DNA from: a virus
Lineage: Duplodnaviria; Heunggongvirae; Uroviricota; Caudoviricetes
Length of the DNA stretch: 17,760 nt
IMG/VR virus record: IMGVR_UViG_2609459861_000001
Strand: one strand, 5' to 3'
Notes under the pieces: generated by a model
The model's input: only the letters and a program-made list of their open reading frames with translations
Told to the model about the DNA's origin: nothing
Database searches by the model: none
Made by a program: the position numbers and the translations under genes
Part shown: piece by piece, positions 3,699-15,140 of the stretch
Numbering within the stretch: the first letter of the stretch is position 1
Layout of the letters: the number at the start of each line of letters is the position of its first letter

Positions 3699-3925
3699 TG
3701 GCTGATGCAATGGATCTCGTACAGCAGCGCGTTGAAGAAGAACGCCAGCGCCATATCCGTGCTGCCCGTGCCAAAACACCGGGCGTGTCTCGCGTGCTTT
3801 GTATTGAATGTGAAGCGCCAATTCCGCCAGCACGCCGCCGCGCCATTCTAGGAGTGCAGCTTTGCATTACCTGCCAGGAAATCGCAGAGCTGAAAGGTAA
3901 ACATTACAACGGAGGTGCTGTATGA
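3698..3925 (+). CDS. TraR/DksA-family C4 zinc-finger protein
   Basis: 75 aa with CIEC...(17)...CITC spacing (C-x2-C-x17-C-x2-C), typical of phage TraR-like proteins. CAGGAGA RBS. Confidence 0.7.
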   Translation: MADAMDLVQQRVEEERQRHIRAARAKTPGVSRVLCIECEAPIPPARRRAILGVQLCITCQEIAELKGKHYNGGAV

Positions 3926-4779
3926 GCACCATCCTGAAATGGGCGGGAAATAAAACCGCCATTATGTCCGAACTGAAAAAATACCTTCCTGCTGGCCCGC
4001 GACTGGTTGAACCTTTCGCGGGTTCTTGTGCTGTGATGATGGCGACGGATTACCCCAGCTATCTGGTTGCGGATATTAATCCTGATTTAATCAACCTCTA
4101 TAAAAAGATTGCCGCTGATTGCGAAGCGTTTATATCTCGTGCCAGAGTTTTATTTGAGGAAGCAAACAGTGAGCTGGCTTATTACAACATAAGACAGGAG
4201 TTTAATTACTCAACTGAAATTACTGATTTCATGAAGGCGATATATTTCCTGTATCTCAATCGTCACGGTTACCGTGGTTTATGTCGCTATAACAAGAGCG
4301 GGCATTTCAACATTCCCTACGGTAATTATAAAAATCCGTATTTCCCTGAAAAAGAAATTCGCGCATTTGCAGAGAAAGCCCCGCGGGCAACGTTTATCTG
4401 CGCGAGCTTTGATGAAACGCTGGCGATGTTGAAGGCGCGGGATGTGGTGTATTGCGATCCGCCTTATGACGGTACGTTTTCCGGCTATCACACTGATGGT
4501 TTCACTGAAGATGACCAGTATCACCTGGCATCCGTTCTTGAACATCGAGCATCTGAAGGACATCCGGTCATTGTTTCTAACAGTGACACATCCCTGATCC
4601 GTTCGCTGTATCGCAATTTCACTCACCACTACATCAAGGCAAAACGCAGCATCGGCGTGTCGGCTGGCGAGAGTAAATCTGCAACAGAAATCATTGCTGT
4701 TTCCGGGGCGCGCTGCTGGGTGGGATTTGATCCTTCGCGTGGCGTGGATAGTTCTGCTGTGTACGAGGTGCGTGTATGA
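3922..4779 (+). CDS. dam: Dam-family N6-adenine DNA methyltransferase (likely GATC-specific)
   Basis: 285 aa. [11 protein letters not shown] (motif I, compare E. coli Dam LVEPFVGAGSV) and VVYCDPPY (motif IV DPPY). GGAGGTG RBS. Stop overlaps the gpA start (ATGA). Confidence 0.8.
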
Positions 4780-7776: not shown

Positions 7777-7911
7777 GAAACGTTGCTGGCGTCTGAACTT
7801 GCTTCTGGCGTCAGCAAGGTTGAACAACGAGCCCTTGCGAGGCGTTAGCTCTGTAGTGCATGTCTATGCCGCATGAGATCGCATGATCGTTTGAGGATCG
7901 TTTTTGCTAAG

Positions 7912-7936
7912 GCCCGCCAGAACTGGCGGGCTTTTG
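7912..7936 (+). terminator. rho-independent terminator ending the early operon
   Basis: GC-rich hairpin GCCCGCCAG/CTGGCGGGC followed by TTTTG. Confidence 0.55.
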
Positions 7937-7980
7937 CGTAGATCATGCAGGTGCATGAAAACCACTACATAAAGCGGGCA

Positions 7981-7999
7981 GGCGTGGCGGGGATACGAG
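7981..7999. other. cos-like sequence (candidate cohesive-end site)
   Basis: GGCGTGGCGGGGATACGAG matches the first 13 nt of the 186 cohesive end as I recall it (GGCGTGGCGGGGAAAGCAT; P2 GGCGAGGCGGGGAAAGCAC), then diverges. Position between the early operon and the portal gene fits the 186/P2 map. Confidence 0.3.
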
Positions 8000-8085
8000 C
8001 GCGCGCAACTCGAGATAGTGTGATACTTATCTGAGAAATCTTAACAAGGTTCAATACAATACCCTTTCAAAAAAAGGGGAGTGTG

Positions 8086-9237
8086 ATGTTTGTAAAAAAT
8101 AACTTTAATACAAATAATTTCGATGCGGAATTAGTTGAAGCGATTGGTAATAGGCTGGAAAACAACCAATTTTCGGATGCAATACTTGCAGGAACCAAAT
8201 ATCTAACAACTTTGCTGCGTGAAAAAGGGCAATGTGAAGGGGATGGGGCTCAGCTTGTTGGTACTGTTTTGGGTGGACAATCACCTAGAATCCAAATTAA
8301 TAGTCTTCAATCTGTATCAGAGCAGGACGAACAGCGCGGATTTGAAGCACTATTAAGAGGCTACTATCAGTGTATAAGAAATCCAAGGACACATGACAAT
8401 TTCCCTGATACAGAAGATTCCTGCATGAGAATATTGATCATGTTGGATACTTTTATTAAGTATTTAAAAAGAGATGTTGCTGAGTTCGATTACACAGCAA
8501 TTCTTGAAAGAATTTATGAGGTTCACTTTGTAAATAATTCTGATTATGCAGAAGCTTTAATATCACAAATTCCAGAAAAAAAACTACTAGATTTTTTCCA
8601 AAGTTTAATTTCTCGCTTTAATGAAAGGCCAACCAAGGAAATTGATTCTATATTCAAAGCAATAAACCAACGCTTTTCAGGAGAGGAAGAAAAAGCCGCA
8701 ATGCGGTTGCTAGGTGATGAGTTACGCAAGGCTAGCAATAATGTTGAGTTTGCTAATGTATTTAGAATAATTAAGCCGAGCGCATGGAGAAATCTTCCTG
8801 ATGATGTTTTAATTAGAATGGAAAATATAATCATCGAAGAGTGCAAAAAAGGATATTTGGATTTCTATTCTGATGCGACCAAAGGAGCTATAGGAACATG
8901 GGGTAATACATTTGGTAGCAAATTTAAAAGAAGAGGTGATCTTGGTGATGCTTTAATTGGATTGTTATATGATAGTTGGTATACGCAAAATTATGTTGCG
9001 AAATATTACGTTTTTTCAATCCCTTCTATCATTACTGATGATGTGAAAGTTAAGGAGTTAGCTGATGCTTTAGCTTATGCCACCATTGTAAATGGTGCTA
9101 AGCTTTTACGAACAAAATTGATTGATGCATGTAAAAATTATCCTGATAAGTTGAAAGAGCATCTTAGGGATGCTGTTCAGCAACGGATGGATAGTGATAA
9201 AAAATATGCGGAAGAATTATTAGGTCAAATAAGCTGA
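8086..9237 (+). CDS. A+T-rich cargo gene: protein with N-terminal HEPN-like domain (Rx4H motif) and uncharacterised C-terminal domain; candidate anti-phage defence
   Basis: 383 aa from ATG 8086 (GTG 8083 also in frame) with AAGGGGAG RBS. Codon usage and base composition are visibly A+T-rich compared with neighbouring phage genes. Motif CIRNPRTHD (R99...H104, nt 8377-8394) at the end of a roughly 125-aa N-terminal domain resembles the HEPN Rx4-6H signature. Own terminator downstream. Confidence 0.6.
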   Translation: MFVKNNFNTNNFDAELVEAIGNRLENNQFSDAILAGTKYLTTLLREKGQCEGDGAQLVGTVLGGQSPRIQINSLQSVSEQDEQRGFEALLRGYYQCIRNPRTHDNFPDTEDSCMRILIMLDTFIKYLKRDVAEFDYTAILERIYEVHFVNNSDYAEALISQIPEKKLLDFFQSLISRFNERPTKEIDSIFKAINQRFSGEEEKAAMRLLGDELRKASNNVEFANVFRIIKPSAWRNLPDDVLIRMENIIIEECKKGYLDFYSDATKGAIGTWGNTFGSKFKRRGDLGDALIGLLYDSWYTQNYVAKYYVFSIPSIITDDVKVKELADALAYATIVNGAKLLRTKLIDACKNYPDKLKEHLRDAVQQRMDSDKKYAEELLGQIS

Positions 9238-9246
9238 TTATTATTT

Positions 9247-9284
9247 GCACCTAATCTCACTTTCGATGTTAGGTGCATTTCTAT
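9247..9284 (+). terminator. candidate terminator after the cargo gene
   Basis: Inverted repeat GCACCTAA (9247-9254) / TTAGGTGC (9269-9276) with a 14-nt loop, followed by ATTTCTATAT. Lies between the convergent cargo gene and portal gene. Confidence 0.35.
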
Positions 9285-9288
9285 ATGC

Positions 9289-10323
9289 CTAATCTAATTC
9301 ATATGAGGTAAATTTAACCAGTTCTTCATTAAGTCCAATCCATGAGTTAATTTCAGATATTCTGTGTTGTAGCGGAATTAACTCATTCCTGACAAAAACC
9401 TTACTAGCCTTTTCAACATCCCCAAACCCGCCAACATTACTAGGCATAATCCCCATCATCTGCGGCGGTACACGGTGCGCTGCCATCATGTCATCCCGGC
9501 TCACGTTCTTGATGTTAAGAAACTCATCTTTTGCAGCCACCTCTGACAGCGGGATGATCTGAATCCCGTCTTTCTTTCCGTTGGGTGAGTACATAAACAA
9601 GTTGCGGAAGTTGCCCGGCCCTTTGGCGCTTTTCATCGCATTGCGGAGGTTGTTCACATCCTCCTGGTTCTGCGCGGCATCGGTCATGTACATGATGAAG
9701 CCTGCATGACTACCGTTAATGTAATATTTGCGGCGGAACAGCGTGGCGGACTCGTTGAGCAAAGCGGATGGGATGGCAGAAAGATAGCCGGGCAGGCCGT
9801 AGATCTCCTGATTAATATCTGGTTCCATCAGATGAAAAATGCTGCCTTTCGTGAACTGATATGGCTGGGTTGTCATACCGTATTGCACAAACCAGTAGGT
9901 ATCCAGGTCTAACCCGCGTCGGGTATATTTTGCCAGGGCAGGCTCAAGGGCGATAACTTCACCGAAGCGGTTCGTGCGTTTCTCCAGGTAGGCGTTACCA
10001 AATACCAGGTAGTCCTGCACAAAACGTGAAAAAGCCTGCTGGCTGAGCAGCGGGTGAGGGATATAGGTACTGGTCAGAATGTTGCACTTTACTGCAATCG
10101 GGGAACTGTGATGCACGGCAGCGCGGAAGGTGCGCGCCAGTCCGTCAAAGCTGACGGGCGGCTCATACCAACGGTCCATCTGTACGCATTCCACATAATC
10201 CAGCAGTTCTCGGCGGTCCAGAACAGGAACGGGATCGCCGAAGCTGAATGCTTCGGCTGTAGTTTGACTTTTAAGCTGGATCTGTTTCGTCGCCGCAGCG
10301 CGGTTCTTCTTACTCTTTCCCAT
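9289..10323 (-). CDS. portal protein (P2 gpQ-like)
   Basis: 344 aa from ATG 10321-10323, same length as P2 gpQ. Its start overlaps the terminase stop (ATGA), indicating translational coupling. Position and size match P2/186. Confidence 0.8.
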   Translation of the reverse strand: MGKSKKNRAAATKQIQLKSQTTAEAFSFGDPVPVLDRRELLDYVECVQMDRWYEPPVSFDGLARTFRAAVHHSSPIAVKCNILTSTYIPHPLLSQQAFSRFVQDYLVFGNAYLEKRTNRFGEVIALEPALAKYTRRGLDLDTYWFVQYGMTTQPYQFTKGSIFHLMEPDINQEIYGLPGYLSAIPSALLNESATLFRRKYYINGSHAGFIMYMTDAAQNQEDVNNLRNAMKSAKGPGNFRNLFMYSPNGKKDGIQIIPLSEVAAKDEFLNIKNVSRDDMMAAHRVPPQMMGIMPSNVGGFGDVEKASKVFVRNELIPLQHRISEINSWIGLNEELVKFTSYELD

Positions 10324-12089
10324 CAAAAAATCTCCACAATATTGCTGGTATTGGCGGATTCGCCCTGCAGCGGTTCGTTAAACAGTGCGTGCATTGTTGC
10401 CCAGGCCAGATCGGCATGGCTGGCTTCTTCGCTGCGGCTGGCTTCATAGGTTGGGCGGTTGCCGCTGGCGGTGGTGGCGCGACGGATTGCCATAAATGAC
10501 TGCGCTATGTCGGTGTGTCCGGCGTCAAACTCCAGACGACGGTGACTGATAATGTCGTAGGCCTTGAGTACCAGGGCGTTTTTAACGTTGGGGTTGTAGA
10601 CAAACTCCCGGACGGCTGGAAAAAACGCTTTCACGTTCTCGTAAACCCCGTGGCCGACACCTGTCGAGTCGATGCCGATGTAGGTCACGTTGTACTGTTC
10701 GGTCAGTTTTTTGATGGCGTCAGCCTGGGCGCGAAAGTCCATTCCGCGCCACTGGTGACGCTCAAGAATGCGGAACTTGCCGCCCGGCACGGCTGGCGGT
10801 GCCACCACCACGCATCCGGCGCTGTCGCCATTCTGCGTACCTTTCGCCGGGTCATAACCGATCCATACTTCGCGCCAGCCAAACGGGCGCAGGGCCAGTG
10901 CATGAAAGTCAGTCCAGACTTCCCAGCTGTCTACCATGCACGCCTGCAGCTCGCTGAGCGGGAACACGGACGCGAGATCGTCCACAAACTCGCACATCAG
11001 CAGGTTCTGGTATTCGTCCGGGCTGTACTCCATGCGCAACTGGTCAAGGTCGAACAGGTTACAGCCGCCGCGCACCGCATCTTCCACGGTGACTATCTGG
11101 CGGTATTGCCCGTCTGCGCACAGCAGGCCGGGGGCCAGATTGCTGTGGGACAGGTCGATGTCCACCTTATCGGCTTTGTTGCGCCCACGGTTGAACAGCG
11201 CACCGGACCAGAACGGATAAGCACTGTGTGTCAGGCTGGATGGCGTGGAAAAATAGGTTTGTCGCCATTTTTTGTGAATAGCCATACCGGAAGCCACTTT
11301 GCGCAGCTCCTGGAATTTCGGTATCCAGAAATATTCATCCAGATACAGGTTGCCGTGGTAACTCTGGGCCGTGCGGGCATTGGTGCCGAGGAAGTAAAGC
11401 GTGGCCCCGTTGGGAAGCACCATCGGATCGCCTTTCAGCTCCACCTCCACTTCTTTGGCGAAGTCGATGATGTACTGCTTAAAGACGTGGGCCTGTGCCT
11501 TACTGGCAGAAAGGAAAATCTGGTTACGTCCGGTAAGCAGGGCGTCAATCAGGGCTTCACGGGCAAAATAGAAGGTCGCGCCGATCTGGCGTGACTTCAG
11601 CAGGTTGCGGATGCGGTTGGTTTTTCCGGCTTCCCACCAGTGGCGCTGGTAGTTGAACATGGAGGAATGGAAAATTTCTTCCAGCTTCTCAATCTGTTCA
11701 TCGGTGAAAACATTCTTTTCAGGCTGACGGCGTGGGCCTTTGTTGCGGTTGGCGACGTTAGGGTTTAAGTCAGCTTCGTTGCCGCCATTGTTAAACTTGC
11801 CGATCCGCGCGTGGCGCTCCGACTGGCGCGCCAGCAGGTCAATCTCTTTGAAATCTTTCCCTTCTTTGTGCTCCTTCATGATGAGCTGGCAGTAGCGTGC
11901 GGCGGTGGTGAGCTGCATCTGATCCAGCGGCCCATAGTCACCCCACTTGTCGCGTTTTTTCCAGCTGTGAACGGTTGCAACTTTCTCGCCCAGCATTTCA
12001 GCAATGCGGGCTACGCGGTATCCCTGAAAGTACAGCAGCATGGCCTGCCGACGGGGATCGAGATCTGCGGGTGTCAGTGTGGTGTTCAT
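10323..12089 (-). CDS. terminase large (ATPase) subunit (P2 gpP-like)
   Basis: 588 aa, matching P2 gpP in size and in its position upstream of the portal gene on the same strand. Confidence 0.8.
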   Translation of the reverse strand: MNTTLTPADLDPRRQAMLLYFQGYRVARIAEMLGEKVATVHSWKKRDKWGDYGPLDQMQLTTAARYCQLIMKEHKEGKDFKEIDLLARQSERHARIGKFNNGGNEADLNPNVANRNKGPRRQPEKNVFTDEQIEKLEEIFHSSMFNYQRHWWEAGKTNRIRNLLKSRQIGATFYFAREALIDALLTGRNQIFLSASKAQAHVFKQYIIDFAKEVEVELKGDPMVLPNGATLYFLGTNARTAQSYHGNLYLDEYFWIPKFQELRKVASGMAIHKKWRQTYFSTPSSLTHSAYPFWSGALFNRGRNKADKVDIDLSHSNLAPGLLCADGQYRQIVTVEDAVRGGCNLFDLDQLRMEYSPDEYQNLLMCEFVDDLASVFPLSELQACMVDSWEVWTDFHALALRPFGWREVWIGYDPAKGTQNGDSAGCVVVAPPAVPGGKFRILERHQWRGMDFRAQADAIKKLTEQYNVTYIGIDSTGVGHGVYENVKAFFPAVREFVYNPNVKNALVLKAYDIISHRRLEFDAGHTDIAQSFMAIRRATTASGNRPTYEASRSEEASHADLAWATMHALFNEPLQGESANTSNIVEIF

Positions 12090-12231: not shown

Positions 12232-13017
12232 ATGACAGTGAAAGCAAAGCGTTTTCGCATCGGGGTGGAAGGTGCCACCACCGACGGACGCGAAATCCAG
12301 CGTGAATGGTTTACTGATCTGCTGACGCCCGTTAAGTCGACCTCTGCCGAACTGCAGAGCGCAGCGGCCATGGGGCGACGATTCGGGGAGGCACTGGCAG
12401 AAGGGCTGAATATGGTCATGCATCCGCTGGACTCCCTGAAATCCGGCGTTTCCTGGTTGCTGGAGAAACTCGGCATTGTCAGTAAAGAGGCTGCAAAGGC
12501 GAAACTGCCGGAAAGCGTGACGCGTCAGCAACCTGCGACGGTGAAGGCAGACGGTAAAGTGATGATGCCATCGGGTGATTTTCCGTCATGGGGATATGGC
12601 TTTGCGGGGATGTATGACAGCGGCGGCTATATCCCGCGCGGGCAGTTTGGCATCGTCGGTGAAAACGGGCCGGAAATTGTTAACGGCCCGGCAAACGTGA
12701 CCAGCCGGAGAAATACAGCTGCACTGGCTGCCGTTGTCGCCGGAATGATGGGTGTTGCTGCCGCGCCAGCAGAGCTTCCACCGTTGCATCCTTTGGCGCT
12801 TCCCGCAAAAGGCGGTGAAGCGATGGTGAGTCGTGCAGCTACTGTGCCGCCCATTTACCGGATTGAAGCACCGACGCAGATCATCATCCAGACACAGCCA
12901 GGACAAAGTGCGCAGGATATTGCGCGGGAGGTGGCCCGCCAGCTTGATGAACGTGAACGCAGGCTGAAGGCAAAAGCCAGGAGTAACTACAGCGATCAGG
13001 GGGGATACGACGCATGA
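12232..13017 (+). CDS. probable deletion-fusion ORF: capsid scaffold gpO-like N-terminus joined to tail tape-measure-like (gpT) C-terminus
   Basis: N-terminus KRFRIGVEGATTDGREI resembles P2 gpO (KFFRIGVEGDTCDGRVI). The rest (GMYDSGGYIPRGQFGIVGENGPEIV) resembles C-terminal motifs of tape-measure proteins, and the ORF is followed directly by gpU and gpD as T is in P2. Confidence 0.5.
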   Translation: MTVKAKRFRIGVEGATTDGREIQREWFTDLLTPVKSTSAELQSAAAMGRRFGEALAEGLNMVMHPLDSLKSGVSWLLEKLGIVSKEAAKAKLPESVTRQQPATVKADGKVMMPSGDFPSWGYGFAGMYDSGGYIPRGQFGIVGENGPEIVNGPANVTSRRNTAALAAVVAGMMGVAAAPAELPPLHPLALPAKGGEAMVSRAATVPPIYRIEAPTQIIIQTQPGQSAQDIAREVARQLDERERRLKAKARSNYSDQGGYDA

Positions 13018-13499
13018 TGATGGTGCTGGGATTGTACGTGTTTATGCTGCGCACCGTGCCATATCAGGAGCTGCAGTATCAACGCAGCTGGCGACATGCG
13101 GCAAACAGCCGGGTAAACCGATGTCCGTCCACGCAGTTTCTGGGACCGGACAACGACATGCTGACGCTTTCCGGTGTTCTTATGCCGGAGATAACAGGTG
13201 GCAGGCTGTCGTTGCTGGCACTGGAGCAGATGGCAGAACAGGGGAAAGCATGGCCCCTGATTGAAGGCAGTGGCACGATTTATGGCATGTATGTGATTGA
13301 GGGACTGAATCAGACTAAAACGGAGTTTTTCCGCGACGGTATGCCGCGCCGGATTGAGTTCACCCTGTCGCTCAAACGGGTGGATGAATCCCTGTCCGAT
13401 ATATTCGGTGATCTCAGTGCGCAACTGAATAATCTGCAGGACACAGCAACGTCTGCCTTAAGCGATATCAGTAAAACGGTGGGAGGGCTGCTGTCATGA
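13014..13499 (+). CDS. tail protein gpU-like
   Basis: 161 aa, MMMVLGLYVFMLRTVP... resembles P2 gpU in sequence and size. ATGATGATG start overlaps the upstream stop. Confidence 0.8.
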   Translation: MMMVLGLYVFMLRTVPYQELQYQRSWRHAANSRVNRCPSTQFLGPDNDMLTLSGVLMPEITGGRLSLLALEQMAEQGKAWPLIEGSGTIYGMYVIEGLNQTKTEFFRDGMPRRIEFTLSLKRVDESLSDIFGDLSAQLNNLQDTATSALSDISKTVGGLLS

Positions 13500-14596
13500 A
13501 TTTCAGCTCTGAACTGCTTAACAAAGGCAACAAAACTCCCGCATTCAGCATCAGTATTGAGGGCAGGGATATCACCACTGTGCTGGATAACCGCCTGATG
13601 AGTTTGACGCTGACGGACAATCGGGGCTTTGAAGCGGACCAGCTTGATCTGGAGCTGGACGACGCCGACGGAAAAATCGTGCTGCCGCGCCGTGGTGCGG
13701 TCATTACGCTGGCGCTGGGCTGGAAGGGGCAGCCGCTTTTCCCGAAAGGGGCATTCACGGTGGACGAGATTGAACACACTGGCGCACCGGACCGCCTGAC
13801 TATCCGGGCGCGAAGTGCTGATTTTCGTGAAACACTGAATACCCGTCGTGAAAAGTCGTGGCACAAGACCACCGTTGGGGAAGTGGTGAAGGAAATAGCT
13901 GCGCGGCACAAACTGAAGATGGCATTGGGTAAAGACCTGTCAGATAAACCCGTGGAACATATAGATCAGACCAATGAGAGTGACGGCAGTTTTCTGATGC
14001 GGCTGGCGCGCCAGTACGGTGCTATTGCGTCGGTGAAAAATGGCAATCTGTTATTCATCCGACAGGGGCAGGGTAAAAGCGCCAGTGGTAAACCACTACC
14101 GGTTATCACTATCACACGTAAGGACGGCGACAGTCACCGCTTTACCCTGGCAGATCGCGGAGCTTACACGGGCGTAATTGCCAGCTGGTTGCATACCCGC
14201 GAACCCGCGAAGAAAGAAAGCACCGCGGTGAAGCGTAAGCGCAGGACTAAGAAGCAGAAGAAAGAGCCGGAAACGAAGCAGGGCGATTATCTGGTGGGTA
14301 CGGATGAAAACGTGCTGGTACTTAATCGCACCTATGCTAATCGGAGTAACGCCGAACGGGCAGCGAAAATGCAGTGGGAACGCCTGCAACGCGGCGTTGC
14401 GTCATTCTCGCTACAACTGGCGGAAGGGCGGGCAGATCTCTACACGGAAATGCCAGTGAAAGTCAGTGGCTTTAAACAGCCGATAGATGATGCGGAATGG
14501 ACCATTACGACTCTGACGCATACCGTCAGCCCCGATAACGGTTTTACAACCAGTCTGGAGCTTGAAGTGAGGATTGATGATTTCGAAATGGAATGA
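13496..14596 (+). CDS. tail protein gpD-like
   Basis: 366 aa immediately after gpU with ATGA overlap. Order U-D-ogr matches P2. Confidence 0.8.
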   Translation: MNFSSELLNKGNKTPAFSISIEGRDITTVLDNRLMSLTLTDNRGFEADQLDLELDDADGKIVLPRRGAVITLALGWKGQPLFPKGAFTVDEIEHTGAPDRLTIRARSADFRETLNTRREKSWHKTTVGEVVKEIAARHKLKMALGKDLSDKPVEHIDQTNESDGSFLMRLARQYGAIASVKNGNLLFIRQGQGKSASGKPLPVITITRKDGDSHRFTLADRGAYTGVIASWLHTREPAKKESTAVKRKRRTKKQKKEPETKQGDYLVGTDENVLVLNRTYANRSNAERAAKMQWERLQRGVASFSLQLAEGRADLYTEMPVKVSGFKQPIDDAEWTITTLTHTVSPDNGFTTSLELEVRIDDFEME

Positions 14597-14686
14597 TTCT
14601 TCGCAATGGAGAACTTTTAAGTTTGCAAAATGGAATAATGCGGTATCATTATTGTGAATTTAGCAAAAATGGGGAGAACTCGAAAA

Positions 14687-14905
14687 ATGATGATTTGCCC
14701 ACTGTGTGGAAGTGCCGCCCATACTCGCAGCAGTTTTCAGGTATCTTCATTGACCAAAGAGCGTTACAACCAGTGCCAGAACATTAACTGCAGCCATACT
14801 TTTGTTACCCATGAAACTTTTGTTCGTTCGATTGCAACGCCAAAAGAGTCAAATCCGGTTCAGCCACATCCAATGAAATCAGGACAGGTGGCGCTCTCTC
14901 TTTGA
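14687..14905 (+). CDS. ogr: Ogr/Delta-family zinc-finger late-gene transcription activator
   Basis: 72 aa from ATG 14687 (MMICPLCGSAAHTRSSF...KERYNQCQNINCSHTF, compare P2 Ogr MFHCPLCQHAAHARTS...KERYHQCQNVNCSATF). GGGGAGA RBS. The track ORF starts at an upstream GTG. Confidence 0.8.
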   Translation: MMICPLCGSAAHTRSSFQVSSLTKERYNQCQNINCSHTFVTHETFVRSIATPKESNPVQPHPMKSGQVALSL

Positions 14906-15140
14906 CGCTGCCGCCATTTTGTCGCCATCGTTAAAAAACAGTGTTTCTAACATCATGATTTTAAACAGCTTAAATTTCAGGCAACAAAAAACCCATCAAC
15001 CTTGAACCGAAATGGCGGGGGTGATGGGCTCCACAAAATGGGGACATCAAAGAAAAGCAGTGGCACTAATTAAGACTGATGCCCTGCGGAAAAGTTCTGC
15101 GGTTGTGCAAAAAAATTTCATTTTCAGGGCAACTTCAGTT

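Follow-up and report, generated by a model that had tools for sequence, protein, structure and literature searches.

A 17,760-nucleotide stretch of DNA filed as the IMG/VR virus record IMGVR_UViG_2609459861_000001 (Caudoviricetes; "the window" below refers to this stretch at its full length) is Escherichia coli chromosome with a P2-like prophage sitting between rcdA and ybjL. Between the cos site and the portal gene of the prophage lies a single cargo gene (8086–9237, + strand), and its 383-residue product is, in our judgment, rather probably a stand-alone abortive-infection ribonuclease (RNase), a prophage-carried single chain in which a C-terminal solenoid gates the active site of an N-terminal HEPN domain. 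The protein has a two-domain architecture with conserved catalytic residues. Its gene is of foreign origin, has no conserved partner, and occupies the cos-proximal hotspot of P2-like phages, and its solenoid is reused with other effectors. To our knowledge, one-protein HEPN defenses are common in genomes, very few of them have a known trigger or target, and HepS was the first to be worked out in detail.

The cargo gene and its composition

The open reading frame (ORF) of the cargo gene runs from an ATG at 8086 to a stop codon at 9235–9237 and is exactly the ORF of the RefSeq entry WP_000497736 ("TIGR02391 family protein"). The start Met is shared with full-length homologues of 35–92% identity, and a Shine–Dalgarno sequence (GGGGAG, 8076–8081, + strand) is present as the ribosome-binding site. 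A preliminary description, made from the letters of the window, had placed a 383-residue ORF between a cos-like site and the portal gene; the ORF, the RefSeq annotation, and the cos alignment given below all confirm this. It had also called the gene more A+T-rich than its neighbors and probably acquired. By composition count, the G+C content of the ORF is 0.350 and that of its third codon positions (GC3) is 0.258, as against 50–57% G+C for the flanking phage genes (gene A, 0.532; the portal gene, 0.501 with a GC3 of 0.59; terminase, 0.565). The compositional break at the cargo gene is real and sharp, and the A+T-rich variable cassette to which the gene belongs (8007–9288, + strand; G+C 0.349) fills the interval from cos to the portal gene. 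The G+C content of 35%, together with the patchy taxonomic spread of the homologues, indicates a foreign, horizontal origin, in agreement with the acquisition supposed earlier.

The N-terminal HEPN domain

Residues 11–125 (8116–8460, + strand) are assigned to a HEPN domain of the Ymh/TIGR02391 family. They match Pfam Hypoth_Ymh (PF09509) with an E value of 2.9e-23 and 82.5 bits, the gathering threshold being 25, and the protein scores 44.8 bits against TIGR02391 (cut-off 39.45), so that both profiles are matched above their thresholds. The matches in PADLOC are confined to this domain and comprise the C-terminal part of PD-Lambda-3_B (E 2.4e-14) and the Argonaute-associated Aga_HEPN. A PHROGs search with the cargo protein gave merely a weak match to a family of unknown function. 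Ymh was placed in the HEPN superfamily of RNases by Anantharaman et al. (2013, PMC3710099). The predicted fold of the N-terminal part is a four-helix up-and-down HEPN fold, which matches a solved HEPN protein structure. The proposal that the N-terminal ~125 residues are HEPN-like is therefore upheld by Pfam, TIGR02391, PADLOC, and the predicted fold together, and the assignment is as firm as computation allows.

The predicted RNase active-site motif, R98-N99-P100-R101-T102-H103 (8377–8394, + strand), falls between helices 77–97 and 110–128 of the model, that is, between the third and fourth core helices. An Rx4H motif had been recognized before as R99-x4-H104; the motif itself stands, but this numbering was counted from a GTG one codon upstream, and the residues are R98 and H103 from the Met at 8086. 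By itself, the motif is weak evidence, because 17% of the shuffled versions of the cargo protein contain Rx4H and 43% contain Rx4-6H. It gains weight from the domain match and from being invariant: R98, N99, R101, and H103 do not vary in the 32 full-length homologues (35–92% identity), and of 120 proteins carrying the same N-terminal domain, all 120 keep R98 and R101, with H103 in 119, P100 and D108 in 118 each, and N99 in 116. A second Rx4H (R142–H147), located in the solenoid, was dismissed since it is not conserved in the wider family.

The same residues bear on an alternative in which the cargo protein is not a nuclease, either because its HEPN domain functions as a binding domain or because the protein is a counter-defense factor that neutralizes a host system. 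Some HEPN domains are generally known to be noncatalytic, and phage hotspots can carry anti-defense genes. However, R-N-x3-H, R101, and D108 are kept in 118–120 of the 120 relatives, which is the pattern of catalytic HEPN domains (PMC3710099), and we regard a role of this kind as very improbable.

The C-terminal solenoid and its exchange between effectors

Residues 126–383 (8461–9234, + strand) are predicted to fold into a HEAT/ARM-like alpha-solenoid, an undescribed domain. The model of this part is all-helical apart from one beta-hairpin (predicted local distance difference test score of about 90–98) and consists of stacked antiparallel helix pairs, as in HEAT/ARM repeat proteins. Pfam scans of 24 diverse copies of the solenoid at E ≤ 1 gave no recurring family, PADLOC gave no match, and sequence profile searches gave no relative in the Protein Data Bank (PDB); Foldseek searches against the PDB and BFVD returned nothing at E < 1e-3. 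The earlier statement that the C-terminal ~250 residues match nothing holds for the sequence databases, but the region is not featureless, being a HEAT/ARM-like solenoid that is shared with kinase and CHAT proteins. A specific PUF/RNA-binding assignment of the solenoid was rejected because importins and other HEAT proteins score equally.

A HMMER search with the solenoid only, run against 1.84 billion cluster representatives at E ≤ 1e-3, found 292 proteins. Among the 148 of them listed beyond the close family, 85 carry a Ymh HEPN domain on the N-terminal side of the solenoid. Judged by length and domain position, ~30 of the 148 are ~450 residues or longer and have another N terminus, which was a Ser/Thr kinase in 17 of the 17 scanned; in one further protein (P0173), the solenoid is fused to a CHAT protease. 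The remaining solenoid proteins are short, either fragments or solenoid-only forms. F148, Y154, W234, R244-x-E246, G-T-W (270–272), and W-Y-T-Q-N-Y (298–303) are common to the HEPN, kinase, and CHAT versions, and from these shared motifs the solenoid is, by alignment, one domain family exchanged between effector types. RNases, kinases, and proteases are three effector types known from immune systems. We tentatively consider it possible that the solenoid is an undescribed portable immune-sensor module that is plugged into a HEPN RNase, a Ser/Thr kinase, or a CHAT protease across many phyla, and that all versions sense one conserved infection cue. If this is true, a new family of single-chain sensors, along with a new trigger, would become accessible through the tractable P2-borne E. 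coli protein.

The cos site and the P2 hotspot

The conserved cos region (7949–8006) aligns to the cosR/cosL junction of P2 at 45 of 58 positions. The equivalent of the 19-nucleotide cohesive end, GGCGTGGCGGGGATACGAG at 7981–7999, is identical to that of P2 at 14 of 19 positions. This places the cargo gene between cos and the portal gene. The latter, a gpQ homologue (9289–10326, − strand), is the fixed right border of the slot, as judged from the gene order in every context read. When the segment 7780–9290 was compared by megablast with 5,426 complete E. coli genomes, 1,283 records matched. The cos region is shared with about 1,280 E. coli records, and the cargo gene is present in 51 of the 1,283; in the ~1,230 other genomes, the similarity ends at ~8005–8011, directly past cos. 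This stop of the homology delimits the cassette as ~8007–9288. P2 has ~167 bp between cos and the portal gene, and an "empty" relative (locus L011) has ~150 bp; in sister prophages, the same slot is either empty (L011) or holds a gene for a P-loop NTPase (L012).

P2-like phages are documented to have a hotspot rich in anti-phage systems in the interval from gpA to gpQ (Rousset 2022, PMC9122126; Vassallo 2022, PMC9519451; PMC13586616). The cargo gene is situated as hotspot cargo is, between genes A and Q and beside cos, and the content of its slot varies among similar prophages. The preliminary description had likewise pointed to a P2-type hotspot near cos and the portal gene, which agrees with the gpA–gpQ interval (PMC9122126), but it had put old and tin at the very same spot; in P2 itself, these genes are on the gene A side of cos, on the opposite side from the cargo.

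The hotspot comprises two independent sub-slots, one on each side of cos (7949–8011 in the window; loci L029–L033). The sub-slot between gene A/DinI and cos varies: it is empty, or contains genes for proteins of 66 and 260 residues, for a 225-residue protein, or for DUF8087 or DUF6694. The HEPN gene on the side between cos and the portal gene is constant.

Distribution and neighborhoods of the cargo gene and its homologues

Among sequenced enterobacteria, the identical protein is found very often, with entries in 5,387 blocks of the assembly collection, and the gene is also found in two deposited phage genomes. In all seven distinct E. coli neighborhoods shown, the cargo gene ends 52 bp from the stop codon of the portal gene. 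A conserved partner gene was sought in these seven E. coli contexts and in four distant loci, and none was found. No small co-oriented ORF is situated beside the cargo gene, whose flanks are cos and the portal gene. The HEPN-MNT pair and other two-gene toxin–antitoxin modules were rejected, as there is no adjacent antitoxin gene.

In Aeromonas dhakensis, a homologue of ~50% identity is flanked by NinB/Rha genes and genes of the Cro/CI type within a lambdoid prophage. Another one, in Sulfurovum, is beside genes for an AAA_15/AAA_21 ATPase and a UmuC-like protein, and a third one, on a metagenomic contig, adjoins DUF4145, GIY-YIG, ImmA/IrrE, and Bil-like genes. When one genome of each species was scanned, full-length relatives were found scattered among Pseudomonadales, Campylobacterota, Deltaproteobacteria, Acidobacteriota, Bacillota, and Latescibacterota. 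Among the 51 genes neighboring four of these loci are three large serine recombinases, a MobA relaxase, transposases, a type I restriction–modification methylase, AAA_15, AAA_13, UvrD, and putAbiC; housekeeping genes appear too, at the edges of these loci. The surroundings of the homologues are a context of mobile, conflict-related genes, the relatives being in prophages or in mobile and defense islands.

In unrelated bacteria (L003/L004, L005, and one of L020–L027), solenoid-family genes repeatedly have genes of the UmuD/UmuC type (Peptidase_S24 plus IMS) within a few kilobases. Such neighbors probably mark mobile elements.

These neighborhoods can be set against the idea that the cargo gene serves the prophage itself, as an addiction or competition toxin or as an RNase that tunes phage or host transcripts at induction, with no protection from unrelated phages. 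The gene, which intact phages carry, adjoins the genes for packaging and the portal, and about one-fourth of the P2 hotspot loci hold non-defense cargo such as partition systems and toxins (PMC9122126). Against such a role, the gene is intact in a remnant that is unable to make particles, it has no conserved antitoxin-like neighbor, and homologues are found outside phages, in islands with restriction–modification and abortive-infection (Abi) genes. We consider it improbable that the gene functions in this way; both this role and the noncatalytic or counter-defense one are less likely than defense by a gated RNase.

Proposed mechanism

Here, we propose a mechanism for the cargo protein as a single-chain abortive-infection RNase. 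The preliminary description had already taken the gene for a candidate single-protein defense of the abortive-infection or toxin-like kind, and the computational checks that it suggested all spoke for this reading. For its expression in the lysogen, its oligomerization, its RNase activity and target, its trigger, and its anti-phage phenotype, we infer the following course from the enzymology of the HEPN family, from HepS, and from PD-lambda-3. The Ymh-type HEPN domain would be a metal-independent RNase, and its active site would form only once two R-x4-H motifs meet in a homo-oligomer, as in other HEPN enzymes. The C-terminal alpha-solenoid would function as the regulatory or sensor module. 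In an uninfected lysogen, the solenoid would hold the HEPN sites apart or occluded. On infection, it would bind a cue, most likely a protein of the competing phage, and the oligomer would rearrange. The activated RNase would then cut an essential RNA (tRNA anticodon loops, mRNA, or rRNA), the target being probably tRNA or another RNA of translation. As a result, translation would cease, and no phage would be produced by the infected cell.

Several observations support this course. The HEPN domain matches PD-Lambda-3_B, which belongs to a proven defense, and the gene is in a hotspot rich in anti-phage systems. Genes across cos vary, but the identical protein is always encoded beside the portal gene, and no partner is found among the distant homologues. 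In sister prophages, the slot is empty or contains different cargo. The foreign origin of the gene and the mobile, conflict-related surroundings of its homologues also speak for this course. The solenoid is fused to HEPN, kinase, and CHAT domains, and HepS provides a precedent.

Other observations weigh against the proposed function. Evidence for a promoter of the cargo gene is weak, and the orientation of the two domains in the structure model is uncertain (predicted template modeling score of 0.67). No PADLOC model spans the whole protein. WP_000497736 is not among the systems that were cloned, or that the text describes as active, in Rousset 2022; it was not found in the parts of the DefensePredictor tables searched, its accession occurs in no paper text searched, and the literature search found no experiment on the protein. 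Kinase–solenoid proteins occur in Pseudomonas, Duganella, Thauera, Xylophilus, Bryobacterales, and Planctomycetes (L020–L027), where their genes are mostly amid metabolic genes with few conflict-type neighbors. A defense context was sought for these relatives and not clearly found, and their surroundings are a caution against calling the solenoid defense-specific. Moreover, the solenoid has a mean pairwise identity of 52% and several invariant motifs, which is more conservation than expected for a sensor in an arms race, and would fit a conserved host ligand or RNA equally well.

The last two points lead to the main rival, in which the HEPN domain is likewise an RNase and the solenoid serves for substrate docking, delivering the attached effector to RNA or the translation machinery, like PUF/Pumilio or HEAT proteins, with activation controlled otherwise, for example, by expression level or a host factor. 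The strong conservation of WYTQNY, GTW, and RxE across the HEPN, kinase, and CHAT versions, at the identity just given, suits one conserved ligand, and the non-defense contexts of the kinase versions agree with it. On the other hand, PUF proteins match the solenoid no better than importins, condensin HEAT subunits, or the A subunit of PP2A, and these are generic solenoid similarities with a high root mean square deviation. In immune proteins, a constant module on which effectors are swapped usually marks a sensor. The first repeats of the solenoid (residues 161–220) are also its most variable part. On balance, we judge the docking function unlikely and favor the gating of the RNase by the solenoid.

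Comparison with known defense systems

The closest precedent is HepS of the Salmonella prophage Gifsy-1 (Sargen et al., Nature 2026, PMC13043305). This solo HEPN protein forms an inactive tetramer; a tail-tip protein of siphovirus phages opens the tetramer, which then cleaves tRNA anticodon loops (PMC13043305). Both HepS and the cargo protein are one-protein products of prophage accessory genes without a conserved partner, and their R-x4-H motifs are at nearly the same position (R100–H105 in HepS and R98–H103 in the cargo protein). They differ in that HepS is a solo HEPN, its authors having excluded homologues longer than 250 residues or with extra domains, whereas the cargo protein has 383 residues with a 258-residue solenoid; in addition, HepS is encoded on a lambdoid prophage and the cargo gene is on a P2-like one. 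Searches of the PDB with the family profile or with the HEPN domain alone gave no solved HEPN chain at E ≤ 1, the presence of HepS chains there being not verified. Membership in the HepS-type solo HEPN group was rejected on the grounds of the extra domain, the length of 383 residues, and the lack of detectable similarity.

Subunit B of PD-lambda-3 (Vassallo et al. 2022, PMC9519451), which is from E. coli, has a Ymh-type HEPN domain, and the match to its PADLOC model PDLC03987 (E 2.4e-14) covers profile positions 139–258 of 270. The phenotype of PD-lambda-3 is abortive infection (PMC13190303). As PADLOC names A and B subunits, the system comprises more than one gene. The HEPN domain is C-terminal in subunit B but N-terminal in the cargo protein, and the model is without a counterpart of the solenoid. 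The cargo protein was not assigned to this system, because only the HEPN part of the B model matches and no partner gene is adjacent. Membership in an Abi family was also rejected, as no Abi model of PADLOC matches the cargo protein.

By hidden Markov model score, the cargo protein is a member of the Ymh/Hypoth_Ymh/TIGR02391 family, and it keeps the Rx4-6H motif. The fusions described for this family are those with paraMORC, AbiJ-NTD1/2, and AbiTii, besides solo forms, and do not include a C-terminal solenoid (Anantharaman et al. 2013, PMC3710099). The Ser/Thr kinase defenses of the PD-T4-6 type (Vassallo 2022) resemble the solenoid relatives in the layout of an effector with a C-terminal module, and the kinase domain of these relatives matches PD-T4-6 models. 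The match is to the kinase core only (~140 residues), no model matches the solenoid, and the cargo protein is without a kinase. The genes old and tin of P2, whose expression from the prophage excludes other phages, share the gpA–gpQ hotspot with the cargo gene; their products are unrelated to the cargo protein, and they are on the gene A side of cos, whereas the cargo gene is on the portal side.

WP_000497736 is listed in Table S5A of Rousset 2022 (PMC9122126) with the label Hypoth_Ymh, and in the supplements, the accession and the label are confined to that table. The fusions that were described for Ymh in 2013 do not include a HEPN-plus-solenoid architecture, and neither Pfam nor PADLOC contains the solenoid. 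Because the gene and its location were already recorded and HEPN Abi proteins are common, the surprise is moderate, and the added value is a portable solenoid shared with kinase and protease effectors together with a tractable gene. The cargo protein is genetically easy, being the product of a single, widespread E. coli gene with clear catalytic residues. Identifying the ligand of the solenoid could show how an entire group of unrelated effectors is turned on, and the solenoid would add a detectable family to defense-annotation tools.

Transcription signals and other features of the prophage

A GC-rich hairpin followed by UUUU (7911–7935, + strand), on the 5′ side of cos, is probably the intrinsic terminator of the early operon (gene A to the DinI-like gene). 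Its folding energy is −23.4 kcal/mol (z −5.0), and equally stable folds occurred in 0 of 200 shuffles. A second hairpin (9246–9277, listed on the + strand), between the convergent cargo and portal genes, is also a probable terminator, with folding energies of −15.7 kcal/mol (z −5.7) on the + strand and −14.9 kcal/mol (z −4.4) on the − strand; the tail 3′ of it is only moderately U-rich. A simple consensus terminator scan listed neither hairpin. Stable hairpins on both sides of the gene nevertheless accord with the terminators that had been described as flanking it. The sole promoter-like site upstream of the cargo gene is a weak sigma-70-like candidate, CTGAGA-18-TACAAT (8031–8060, + strand; 9 of 12 matches), which is merely a candidate, as promoter-like sites in the region are not more numerous than in shuffles. 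From these signals, independent expression of the cargo gene is plausible. A scan of the window with Rfam matched only the gene of the small RNA RybB, away from the cargo gene, and no tRNA was found.

Repeats of the GCATGA/TGCATG type are located just 5′ of cos (7857–7957), with CGCATGAGATCGCATGATCG at ~7870–7890 and CATGCAGGTGCATG at 7943–7956. They are shared in part with P2 (GCATGAGATTGCAT) and may belong to the region that terminase recognizes; the TGCATG-type hexamer is not enriched across the whole window.

The prophage is a remnant. The terminase gene (10323–12089, − strand) is directly followed by a truncated tape-measure gene (12232–13017), gpU (13014–13499), gpD (13496–14596), and ogr (14593–14787); the capsid, lysis, and most tail genes are deleted, and the hotspot gene is intact. 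The same remnant is found in other genomes (L028 and L012). An intact cargo gene in a decayed prophage is a small but concrete case of a host keeping phage cargo after the death of the phage.

The RybB gene (Rfam RF00110, 100 bits; 14983–15061, − strand) is at the right edge of the prophage. The 3′-terminal AACAAAAAACCCAT of RybB recurs to the left of the integrase (L001 760–773, beyond the window), and this repeat suggests that the phage integrates into the 3′ end of rybB. A gene for a D12-class DNA adenine methylase (3922–4779, + strand) is present in the early operon, just 5′ of gene A, and may encode a phage-borne orphan methylase, for example, one for anti-restriction. A second A+T-rich stretch (1001–1750; G+C ~0.34) lies over a 63-residue ORF (1219–1410) and a CI-type repressor gene (annotated at ~1426–1995) beside the integrase.

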